Source: a virus (taxonomy: Duplodnaviria > Caudoviricetes). Taken from it: DNA of 64,000 nucleotides. The stretch covers positions 520 through 64,519 of IMG/VR virus record IMGVR_UViG_3300047171_000080; one strand, written 5' to 3'. The notes under the pieces are model-generated. The model worked only from the letters and a program-made list of their open reading frames with translations, had not been told where the DNA came from and made no database searches. The position numbers were made by a program, and so were the translations under genes. Of the stretch, positions 37,053 through 38,590 are shown piece after piece. Numbering within the stretch: position 1 is the stretch's first letter; every line of letters begins with the position of its first letter.

Positions 37053-37736
37053 TTATGCGTTGCGCCAGTCGTACGGGCGGCCTTCGATGATTGCGCGGCC
37101 GAGCTCGTACATGATCGTCGCCGTCGACTTTCCCGTCGTTTCGATCGCGGCTGCGGTGCGCTCGGAAATGCGCCCAGTGACATGGATGTTACGCGGAACG
37201 CCCGGCTCGATCCGCGGCCGGCCCGCGCCCGAATCACCGCGGCACTCCGCGCACGAGTGTGTGTTATGGGGACCGGTGATGCGACACGGAAGTCCACCGC
37301 CGCAATCGCATGGCTCGCCGCAGATGAGCGGTCTCTTCGTCGAGCGCGATCGGCCCTTGCTTCCGCCGCCGCCTTGTGTATCGGGCCCGCGCATGAGCCA
37401 CTCAGTAGACGGCTCTTTTTCGACTTGGCGCGCCACGGCCGCATTGATTTCGGCCATACCAATTGGCACGGCGTCGGAATCGTATGCGCCCGCGTTTGCC
37501 GGCGGATCGTCGCCTCGCTCCGCACGCGCGACGTCGTGTTCGGCTGCGAGCGCGTCGACGAACTGGGCCACGCGCGAGTTGGGATAGAGGCGAACGACGC
37601 GTGTCGGCTCTTCAGGATCGCACTCCAGCTGCTCGAGCTCGATCGTCGAGGCTTGCGCTTCGTCCGGCGTCTGCATACACGCGATGCAACGACCGTCTGA
37701 CCCGATCGCATAGCCGTCGTTGGGACAGGTGCTCAT
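37053..37736 (-). CDS. Cys-rich protein with C-terminal GRP/RHH-like DNA-binding segment
   Basis: CxxC clusters; GAGRPR...RISERTAAAI; start re-called at MSTCP. Confidence 0.5.
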   Translation of the reverse strand: MSTCPNDGYAIGSDGRCIACMQTPDEAQASTIELEQLECDPEEPTRVVRLYPNSRVAQFVDALAAEHDVARAERGDDPPANAGAYDSDAVPIGMAEINAAVARQVEKEPSTEWLMRGPDTQGGGGSKGRSRSTKRPLICGEPCDCGGGLPCRITGPHNTHSCAECRGDSGAGRPRIEPGVPRNIHVTGRISERTAAAIETTGKSTATIMYELGRAIIEGRPYDWRNA

Positions 37737-37831
37737 CTCGTCGATCAAGTGAAAAGCCCTCCGCGCACCGATGTGCTCGGAACGAGAGATTCCGCACGCG
37801 GTGGGGCGTTGCTTCGAGAGCACGACCGCCC

Positions 37832-37870
37832 CAAAAAAGAACGGGGACGCGAATTGCTTCACATCCCCGG
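37832..37870 (-). terminator. Intrinsic terminator closing the ncRNA unit
   Basis: CGGGGATGTGAA GCAA TTCGCGTCCCCG TTCTTTTTT. Confidence 0.8.
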
Positions 37871-37942
37871 ACGGTCAGGCTTGATACCCCTAGACCGAAT
37901 TCTATCACGACGGCCCCTCGACGTCGAGGATTCCTCTCGTGT

Positions 37943-38014
37943 TGGAGGGCCCGGGGATCGAACCCGGAGCGGATAGGGGTATCAAGCCTTCCGTCGACAC
38001 CATCGAAGCCCCCC
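37943..38014 (-). ncRNA. 72-nt tRNA-like RNA resembling the tmRNA tRNA-like domain (Ala identity)
   Basis: Acceptor GGGGGGC/GCCCTCC with G3.U70 and A73; T arm CCGGG-TTCGATC-CCCGG; tmRNA-like D region GG..TCGAC. Confidence 0.7.
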
Positions 38015-38023
38015 AACACCGAT

Positions 38024-38093
38024 ATCGTACCATATAAACCTAGCGAGGTCAATAGGTTTGACTTCGCTCGATTAAATAATTATTATTTAATCG
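38024..38093. promoter_or_regulatory. Back-to-back sigma70 promoters with operator palindromes
   Basis: Minus: TTGACC(38052-47)-17-TACGAT with TGn; plus: TTGACT(38058-63)-17-TATTAT; palindrome CGATTAAATAAT-T-ATTATTTAATCG at 38069-38093. Confidence 0.75.
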
Positions 38094-38590
38094 TGGAAGA
38101 GCAAAGCGAGTCGAAGCGAGTCAAGCGCGGCAAGGGAAGACCGGCTCTCGGAGACGATGTGCGCCGGCGTGCCGTGGGCATTTCGCTCGATCCGAAAATT
38201 GCGGACGAGCTGCGCGATCGCGCGGCCGCGCTCGGCATATCTCAGGGCAATCTGATCGCTCGCCTTCTTCGCGAATCGTCTACGGACTTAACCGATAGCA
38301 CGACCGCGCCCGAATTGCTCGAACGGCTCTCGACGTTCTTGCCCAAGGTGAGCGGCGTCTCGATGAACTTCGTCGATAAAGATCATCGCGCGGGGCAGAT
38401 CGTCTTCGGCAATCACATGGCCGTCGTCTGGATCTTTTACGATCCCGAGCTCGGCGCGCGACTCGCATTTCGGTGGGCCCAGCGGGTGATCGACGGCAAG
38501 GTATCGTTCGAACCGTCAGAGGTCGTCGACATCACCCGCTGGACCGAGTCGCAGATCGTATCGCACATTCTGACCGAGCCCGCGAACTAG
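38093..38590 (+). CDS. RHH/CopG-like regulator with C-terminal domain (leaderless)
   Basis: GRPALG...VGISLD...LRDRAAALGISQGNLIARLL; GTG 6 nt after the -10 box. Confidence 0.65.
   Translation: MEEQSESKRVKRGKGRPALGDDVRRRAVGISLDPKIADELRDRAAALGISQGNLIARLLRESSTDLTDSTTAPELLERLSTFLPKVSGVSMNFVDKDHRAGQIVFGNHMAVVWIFYDPELGARLAFRWAQRVIDGKVSFEPSEVVDITRWTESQIVSHILTEPAN

Follow-up and report, generated by a model that had tools for sequence, protein, structure and literature searches.

A phage copy of a bacterial two-gene RNA module combining an alanine-type tRNA mimic with an antisense small RNA

Overview of the module

The DNA examined in this work (the window) is a stretch of 64,000 nucleotides from a virus of the Caudoviricetes (Duplodnaviria), positions 520 to 64,519 of the IMG/VR record IMGVR_UViG_3300047171_000080, and represents nearly the entire 64.5 kb record. 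Its minus strand carries a locus comprised of two RNA genes, one for a 72-nt RNA that resembles alanine tRNA and the tRNA-like domain (TLD) of transfer-messenger RNA (tmRNA), and the other for an antisense small RNA (sRNA) of ~60 nt. These are two separate genes. With a probability of roughly 60%, we read the locus as the phage copy of an RNA-only module in which a tRNA/TLD mimic is accompanied by its private antisense sRNA, the pairs being orthogonal and toxin-antitoxin-like. We are confident about the anatomy of the module and the co-evolution of its parts, and much less so about its function. An earlier note on this DNA had described the locus as a stand-alone phage non-coding RNA, built of a minimal tmRNA/tRNA-Ala-like domain and a self-complementary trailer. 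The second promoter inside this "trailer", the trailer as an sRNA gene in its own right, and a large family of such pairs had escaped it.

The 72-nt tRNA-like RNA

Read along the minus strand, the locus consists of promoter P1, nine bases, the 72-nt element, a spacer of ~50 nt, the complement of the arm, and an intrinsic terminator (Table 1). The promoter, the 72-nt element, its irregular arm, the 16+5-nt complement and the GNRA terminator listed in the earlier note are all present on this strand, and its description of a non-coding RNA locus that extends from promoter to terminator, with an alanine-type acceptor and features of the tmRNA TLD, was borne out. The end of the P1 -10 box is 9 nt from G1, a spacing from which alone a leader of 0-3 nt is predicted.

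The acceptor stem comprises 7 bp (GGGGGGC/GCCCTCC), among them G1-C72, G2-C71, G3.U70 and G4-C69, and is followed by A73. The T arm has 5 bp (CCGGG-UUCGAUC-CCCGG). The D region, UUCGAUGGUGUCGAC, includes the tmRNA-like GG..UCGAC and could form a short D arm, UCGA-UGGUG-UCGA, with a possible stem of 4 bp. In place of an anticodon arm there is an irregular arm, GGAAGG-CUUGAUACC-CCU(A)UCC, in which 6 bp with one bulged A enclose the 9-nt loop CUUGAUACC. CCA is not encoded, A73 being followed by ACA. Folded in isolation, the cloverleaf has a predicted energy of -31.6 kcal/mol, ordinary for its composition (z -0.45).

Standard detectors do not recognize the element. ARAGORN calls no tRNA, tmRNA or tag at the locus, and Rfam reports no family there at gathering scores; when E values up to 10 are admitted, the element is matched by tRNA-Sec only (19.8 bits) and has no tmRNA row. 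This outcome speaks against the tmRNA class. The absence of a tag open reading frame (ORF), stated in the earlier note, holds as well, given the ARAGORN result and the length of 72 nt.

Pairing between the tRNA-like RNA and the sRNA

The site targeted by the sRNA spans the end of the D region, the 5' strand and loop of the arm, and the start of its 3' strand. It forms a perfect 16-nt inverted repeat with the sRNA gene (37989-37974 / 37892-37877), and past a 1x2 internal loop 5 further pairs are added by GACGG (37995-37991) with CCGTC (37874-37870). Allowing up to 3 mismatches, the 16-nt repeat gives only 2 matches in the 64-kb window, where 0.05 are expected from shuffled sequences. Cofolding of the mimic (72 nt) with its sRNA (60 nt, as predicted) yields a free energy change (ddG) of -20 kcal/mol over the separate folds; 200 shuffled seeds gave 0.2 +/- 2.8 kcal/mol, the best being -12.2 kcal/mol. 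The dimer predicted in this way no longer has the acceptor stem or the D arm. For the full read-through RNA started at P1, a long-range helix is predicted in cis (-96.1 kcal/mol, z -5.4). Pairing between the mimic and the sRNA is well supported by these results together with the family data given below.

A second promoter and a separate sRNA gene

The complement of the arm is preceded by an extended -10 promoter of its own, P2, which lies inside the segment first taken for a trailer and whose predicted start coincides with the beginning of the complement. Downstream of the seed is an intrinsic terminator with a stem of 12 pairs (37869-37842), a GCAA loop and a U run. It is this conserved P2, and the complement that begins at its start, which lead us to define two genes instead of one RNA with a trailer. 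The self-complementary trailer of the earlier note is thus an sRNA with its own promoter, in which the complement forms the 5' end.

The Rfam family BjrC68 (RF02353) was considered for the sRNA. Its match (29.8 bits, E 7.2e-06, 37834-37906) is under the gathering score of 39 and the best-aligned part is the terminator hairpin with the U run, so membership was rejected.

Distribution and co-evolution of the family

To find relatives, the 229-nt locus was used in a blastn search of 50,697 phage records, in which no match was obtained. Strict patterns returned from IMG/VR either nothing or one chance match within a coding region. A degenerate pattern was then defined (GGGG, 13 nt, TCGACGG, 8-38 nt, GGTTCGANNCC), and this revealed 22 stretches in IMG/VR and at least 120 in the genome collection. 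Over all loci gathered, a filter on T-arm and acceptor pairing kept 22 of 144 pattern matches. Among the matches listed, six bacterial loci have the window's D region (TTCGAYGGTGTCGACGG) and exact length in common with it. Their arms differ from one locus to the next, and each has its own complement 41-51 nt after A73, with TGnTAGnnT before and a terminator after it. Two of the six are recorded as Eremiobacteria and Baltobacteraceae, the latter placed by NCBI taxonomy in Vulcanimicrobiota (Eremiobacterota). All matches to the large terminase of the phage are distant (3 of 401 genomes, 29-46% identity), so the host phylum is inferred from the RNA family alone.

The window element and the six loci were combined into a covariance model, R1, built from 7 sequences; the window element, one of these seeds, scores 90.3 bits. 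Across 151 genomes recorded as Eremiobacterota R1 detected 66 matches of at least 45 bits, distributed over 38 genomes. A further 45 of the 151 have matches of 31-40 bits only, which we take as a group to be ordinary tRNAs. Up to 5 copies were found per genome, some in tandem ~310 nt apart. Chromosomal neighbours, judged by eye from translated ORFs, are housekeeping genes, often sucC on one side with a convergent acyl-CoA dehydrogenase gene on the other, or rlmN. The family is mainly chromosomal in bacteria, not a stand-alone phage RNA as first proposed, and the phage copy is one of its members.

A first set of 41 units was examined for conservation. G2-C71, G3.U70 and A73 are present in all 41, and G1-C72 and G4-C69 in 38. 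The P2 -10 motif TGnTAnnnT occurs between +15 and +75 in 39 of 41 units, and 31 of these 39 also have TTG at the matching -35 spacing. The longest helix between an arm and its cognate sRNA averages 14.5 pairs and reaches at least 12 in 34/39 units, compared to 7.5 +/- 2.2 pairs for non-cognate combinations; the corresponding duplex energies are -41.8 and -28.9 kcal/mol. The cognate sRNA ranks first as partner for 25 of 41 arms; in the remaining cases it is beaten by that of a close paralogue or orthologue with a similar arm.

A scan of metagenomes with a family-specific pattern gave 99 stretches, 80 of them listed, from which 83 units with enough flanking sequence and 74 distinct units were obtained. 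The P2 motif is found in 67 of the 74, and a helix of at least 12 pairs in 61/67 cognate and 81/992 non-cognate combinations. The same family pattern returned no stretches from IMG/VR, a set that possibly does not include the window's own record. Over both sets, helix position was evaluated in 97 of 115 units, namely those in which P2 was recognized and the helix has 11 pairs or more. The helix begins at a median of 6 nt (interquartile range 5-7) after the -10 box and covers positions 23-36 of the tRNA-like RNA, where the loop and the 5' strand of its arm lie.

Arm and seed sequences differ between units and stay complementary, including units at orthologous sucC-acyl-CoA dehydrogenase loci. 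The complementarity of arm and "trailer", for which covariation among related loci had been suggested as a check, thus behaves as functional in the 41 and the 74 related units, and G3.U70 is kept throughout the first set. Seeds unlike one another at orthologous loci speak for self-specific co-evolution, and against any mRNA target that is conserved. Cognate helices also include G.U pairs, 47 in the first set and 74 in the metagenome set. On the opposite strand each of these would be an A-C mismatch, which shows that pairing works on this strand only and that the constraint acts on the RNA and not on a DNA palindrome. The cloverleaf covaries as well: in the alignment, itself fitted to the model, paired cells make up 90.9%, as against 30-53% when partners are slid, and 16 of 23 pairs change on both sides, a level reached by 0 of 500 shuffles.

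Loops of the YUGAUAM type are found in many relatives and fit the YUNR U-turn motif, which is known from recognition loops of antisense systems. The arm of the window element has 11-13 nt in common with some bacterial units.

Tandem arrays were observed in bacterial chromosomes, at loci L156 (four units, ~310 nt apart), L079 (three), L164, L170 and L160. Between tandem units the terminator and the 'ACACAUCGAAACGC' linker are near-identical, and the arm and seed differ, as if the specificity part alone were diversifying. Most bacterial units carry a conserved -10-like box, GYGAWKGA, ~8 nt before G1, with CTTGYC as the -35. This promoter of the mimic is non-standard and unlike the textbook P2, whereas the phage copy has a standard extended -10. 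Different sigma factors or signals may serve the two genes.

Comparison with tmRNA and its TLD-only forms

The window element resembles the tmRNA TLD in its GGGG.../...CUCC-A acceptor with G1-C72, G2-C71, G3.U70 and A73, in the T arm, and in the GG and UCGAC of the D region. For one relative, L079, tmRNA is the nearest Rfam family (RF00023; 30.2 bits, E 2.9e-10). This best score among relatives remains below the gathering score of 47, and the window element has no row at E<=10, so membership of the tmRNA family is not supported. Nor was an mRNA-like domain with resume codon and tag frame found in the 72-nt element, and no conserved reading frame was seen by eye in the spacers or sRNAs of 7 units. 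Other differences from tmRNA and TLD-only forms are the lack of encoded CCA and the possible 4-bp D stem.

Standard tmRNAs were found above the gathering score in four of five host genomes (113-131 bits, 354-356 nt, with a tag of ANN.YALAA type). The idea that the family could be the hosts' own split tmRNA was rejected on this basis; in hosts with an ordinary tmRNA, the family must be an extra RNA. The host tmRNAs (L145-L148) have an unusual T loop, GGGCAGU or GGGCGGU, which is not UUCGAAU-like, and a tag ANN(N/E/Q)YALAA.

Nine of the 22 stretches that the degenerate pattern returned from IMG/VR, eight of them distinct, are genes of another class, mini-tmRNAs of 73-80 nt (L004, identical to L014, and L006, L007, L010, L012, L015, L021 and L023). 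In these, the 5' and 3' ends of tmRNA are joined by a short covarying hairpin, a construction that the window element does not have, and seven of eight exceed the gathering score of RF00023, with 48.5-65.7 bits. CCA is encoded in three of the eight. The sequence CGGAC before the T arm is present in host tmRNAs and in these mini-tmRNAs, and the window element lacks it. A co-evolving antisense sRNA gene sets the window module apart: no helix of at least 12 pairs with an arm complement was found within 200 nt of any of the eight. The number of these genes suggests that the mini-tmRNA form may be common in phages. On two of the viral contigs with mini-tmRNA genes there are also matches to the Pistol ribozyme above its gathering score, at L010:13302-13377 (-) with 69.6 bits and at L012:1621-1716 (+) with 54.8 bits.

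Mycobacteriophage DS6A is reported to have a TLD-only form of tmRNA that inhibits tmRNA in E. coli, perhaps by titration of SmpB, and tag-less TLD-only forms are also known as ~65-bp genes of Mallomonadaceae plastids (PMC4131195, PMC11915505). The IMG/VR mini-tmRNAs resemble the DS6A case as published there, and their class differs from that of the window element. The window element is like TLD-only forms in the canonical T arm, the absence of a tag ORF and its location in a phage. The accessible passages on published TLD-only forms mention no antisense partner (PMC4131195, PMC11915505).

Comparison with tRNA-Ala and antisense RNA systems

Similarity to tRNA-Ala includes the complete acceptor identity set, the T arm and the overall cloverleaf, and some relatives are called by ARAGORN. 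Differences concern the anticodon, with neither UGC nor GGC present, the arm of 6-7 pairs with a bulge, the loop of 7-9 nt, the reduced D arm, the short variable region and the CCA, which is not encoded. The window element is recognized as tRNA neither by RF00005 nor by ARAGORN, and it has no 7-nt anticodon loop. Among bacterial units, 9 of 40 were called by ARAGORN as tRNA-Asp, -Ile, -Val or -Ser; the family members called lie at loci L079, L095, L133, L155, L156, L159, L171 and L181. Genome annotations of Eremiobacterota probably contain such false tRNAs with G3.U70, and the family accounts for odd calls of the kind "tRNA-Asp/Ile/Val with G3.U70".

The c4 RNA of phages P1/P7 and the CI RNA of P4 are antisense immunity RNAs processed by RNase P. 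Like them, the window locus encodes a small structured RNA in a regulatory region of a temperate phage, and the complementary sites are adjacent on the same strand. The locus differs in that the family is mainly chromosomal and stand-alone, and in that the partner is a separate sRNA and not an mRNA leader. The Rfam C4 family was not matched, either at gathering scores or with E values up to 10 admitted.

RNA antitoxins are known in type I systems (hok/sok-like) and in type VIII systems, in which an RNA toxin is countered by an RNA antitoxin, for example SdsR/RyeA. The module is like these in its cis-linked pairing RNAs, the U-turn-like (YUNR) loop, orthogonal paralogues and the presence on a mobile element. 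Unlike them, it has no toxin peptide, its genes follow one another on the same strand without overlapping, and the candidate toxin is a tRNA mimic. The combination that defines the module, an alanine-type mimic followed on its strand by an sRNA that is separately promoted, ends in a terminator and has the complement of the arm at its 5' end, is present in the window and in the 41 and 74 relatives. We rate it as outside the known kinds of system, although its halves, tag-less tmRNA-like RNAs and antisense RNAs, have known relatives. Searches of open-access full texts found no description of an alanine-identity tRNA mimic with a co-evolving antisense sRNA.

Interpretation of the module

In the mechanism we propose, the 5' end of the sRNA would first contact the arm loop of the mimic, and the helix would then zip along the 5' side of the arm as far as the D region, with 16+5 pairs in the window. 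This would break the L-shaped fold and turn the mimic off, or it might mark the duplex for a double-strand RNase. Transcripts that read through from P1 would carry the complement in cis and are predicted to adopt an inactive long-range helix. The mimic would be the effector and might compete for alanyl-tRNA synthetase (AlaRS), EF-Tu, SmpB or the ribosome, with the sRNA serving as a private antidote or regulator. Entry into ribosomes and, in view of the ARAGORN tRNA calls, mis-decoding are further candidate effects. Since every unit has its own arm and seed, units are orthogonal in the manner of paralogous toxin-antitoxin pairs. Orthogonal arms and seeds, several copies per genome, seeds that differ at orthologous loci, and the occurrence of a phage copy are the reasons for which the mimic is read as the effector. 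We infer both transcripts and their ends, as well as processing, charging, the identity of the effector and any benefit to the phage.

Several observations weigh against this interpretation. In the window, both transcripts and all four ends are predictions, and the -35 of P2 (TCGACG) is poor. The P2 motif, as searched, is absent from 2/41 and 7/74 units, and the cognate helix is shorter than 12 pairs in 5/39 and 6/67. CCA follows A73 in none of the 41 or the 74 units, and it is encoded in all nine genuine tRNAs of the same host loci. Charging would accordingly need 3' cleavage and CCA addition. A nucleotidyltransferase domain of the PolyA_pol (CCA-adding) type is present in all five host genomes examined, and an RNase Z equivalog above the cut-off in none of them, which leaves room for another 3' endonuclease. 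No promoter-like site was found by the scan between the terminator and the gene at 37736, and a leader or attenuator role toward this gene is conceivable in the phage. Finally, the reverse polarity, with the sRNA as effector and the mimic as its sponge, fits the pairing equally well.

A more specific proposal, which we hold only tentatively, takes the module for a unit of addiction or defence made of RNA alone. Once charged with alanine, the mimic would poison translation when supply of the short-lived antisense RNA stops, by capturing SmpB/EF-Tu and blocking trans-translation, by acting as a dead-end acceptor on the ribosome, or by mis-decoding. Bacteria would keep several orthogonal copies. 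The phage copy, with a specificity of its own, might then stabilize lysogeny or exclude rivals, or alternatively disarm a host copy, with which it could cross-talk owing to the arm match of 11-13 nt to bacterial units.

The single transcript of the earlier note would be a tag-less mimic of the tmRNA TLD, acting as an SmpB/EF-Tu decoy or as a tag-free rescuer, with its own 3' trailer as a cis switch or, after 3' processing, a bound second piece; the note also proposed a decoy for anticodon nucleases. P1 has no terminator ahead of the shared one, so a read-through RNA must exist if P1 fires, and the long-range helix predicted for it would suit this reading, as would the nearness of a relative to tmRNA in Rfam and the tmRNA inhibition in E. 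coli reported for the DS6A RNA (PMC4131195, PMC11915505). We nevertheless consider one transcript unlikely, given that P2 is conserved in both sets with the complement beginning at its predicted start, that the element fails the tmRNA gathering score, that the eight TLD-only genes of IMG/VR, seven of them above this score, have no complement, and that its T loop is unlike that of the hosts' own tmRNA. Also improbable is the reverse polarity, in which the sRNA regulates other mRNAs and the tRNA-shaped RNA is a dedicated sponge or buffer. It would resemble the 3' external spacer of a tRNA that sponges RyhB/RybB in E. coli; the same pairing evidence applies to it, a tRNA-like fold would give a long-lived sponge, and a seed at the 5' end is typical of trans-acting sRNAs. 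On the other side, seeds differ at orthologous loci of related genomes and no conserved mRNA target is apparent, the window's seed has no other match in the 64 kb at up to 3 mismatches in 16, and an alanine identity set would be superfluous for a sponge, although G3.U70 and A73 are kept in every unit of the first set.

Quite unlikely is a leader RNA in the manner of P4 CI or P1/P7 c4, where a tRNA-like RNA cut from the transcript pairs on that same transcript and sets termination or read-through into the genes from 37736 onward. The divergent ribbon-helix-helix (RHH) type regulator gene with its operator-like palindrome, a downstream row of same-strand genes that, according to the scan, lack a promoter-like site, and pairing to a site that adjoins the terminator would suit it. 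The missing Rfam C4 match does not, and bacterial modules stand alone, often with a convergent acyl-CoA dehydrogenase gene, so control of read-through is not the general job of the family; the phage copy may have this role in addition. It is very improbable that the element is a mistranslating tRNA which is charged with alanine, reads Ile, Val or Asp codons and has its anticodon arm masked by the antisense RNA. The ARAGORN calls point in this direction, and loops of the form YU-GAU/GAC/GUC-A, in which U33-like and A37-like positions occur, are frequent, but the window element is called by neither ARAGORN nor the Rfam tRNA model and its loop has 9 nt. The arm has 6-7 pairs and a bulge instead of 5 pairs, besides a strongly reduced D arm and a variable region of only 2-3 nt. 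Judging from this geometry, a working distance from codon to acceptor is unlikely. A chance resemblance, a decayed tRNA or a remnant of a phage attachment (att) site can be practically dismissed, as the earlier note had maintained for the last of these: the failure of standard tRNA and tmRNA detectors would fit such an origin, which we judge to be refuted by a family that numbers over 100 units, covaries and keeps its promoters, by the presence of both ends of the fold, and by a repeat far above chance.

The module that we favour, a mimic with its private antisense sRNA, is short, needs no protein gene, exists in orthogonal copies, abounds in one uncultured phylum or more and can be carried by a phage. 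If the mimic is charged, or binds SmpB or EF-Tu, the module would regulate or sabotage translation in a novel way, and it would also be a novel kind of RNA-only mobile module. In addition, the family is a supply of natural orthogonal RNA-RNA switches.

Genomic surroundings of the phage copy

The window holds a clear phage-borne copy of the module under a strong early-region promoter, P1. Features of the locus are listed in Table 1. The promoter scan found 4 promoter-like sites in 2 kb here, where 0.6 are expected. Spacer hairpins similar to the one that overlaps the -35 of P2 are readable by eye, uncounted, in other units.

Table 1. Features of the RNA module and adjoining sequences in the window
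Feature	Position	Strand	Description and basis
Promoter P1 of the tRNA-like RNA	38024..38052	-	TTGACC-17-TACGAT with TG; promoter scan and sequence
Alanine-type tRNA/tmRNA-TLD-like RNA, 72 nt	37943..38014	-	sequence and fold
Target site in the tRNA-like RNA	37974..37995	-	GACGG + A + AGGCUUGAUACCCCUA; inverted-repeat searches
Palindromic hairpin in the spacer	37916..37929	-	CCUCGACGUCGAGG; overlaps the -35 of P2; inverted-repeat search
Promoter P2 of the antisense sRNA	37899..37927	-	TCGACG, 17 nt, TG-a-TAGAAT; promoter scan
Antisense sRNA, ~60 nt (predicted)	37834..37893	-	5' seed UAGGGGUAUCAAGCCU-GA-CCGUC (37892-37870), then terminator
Perfect 12+12 palindrome, operator-like	38069..38093		CGATTAAATAAT-A-ATTATTTAATCG; between divergent promoters
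Divergent gene, 165-aa protein	38093..38590	+	weak ribbon-helix-helix match

Within 38058-38093, the palindrome upstream of P1 overlaps the promoter of the plus strand (TTGACT-17-TATTAT) and extends to the GTG with which the divergent RHH-like gene begins, so the mRNA of this gene may be leaderless. The palindrome is probably the operator of the RHH protein, whose match to RHH_1 (E 0.0044, 17.4 bits) is under the cut-off of 20.5. Downstream of the module, small uncharacterised genes follow in a row on the minus strand, the first at 37736. Searches of Pfam and PHROGs named almost none of the neighbouring genes, and no relatives were found in IMG/VR with the RHH protein and a 227-aa downstream protein as queries.

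None of the listed sequencing runs that contain this DNA is recorded as RNA. Near-identical DNA was detected in contigs of four DNA runs, all belonging to a single further study. Compared with the window, the contigs of one of them (X3) have 0 differences over 37700-37974, at a depth of ~4 and from contigs only, and 9 differences in 37975-38166, of which all those listed are at or above 38046, outside the RNA genes. In another (X5), likewise judged from contigs only, 0 other letters were seen across the RNA module where it is covered. The contig comparison gives a weak hint that the RNA module may be conserved.

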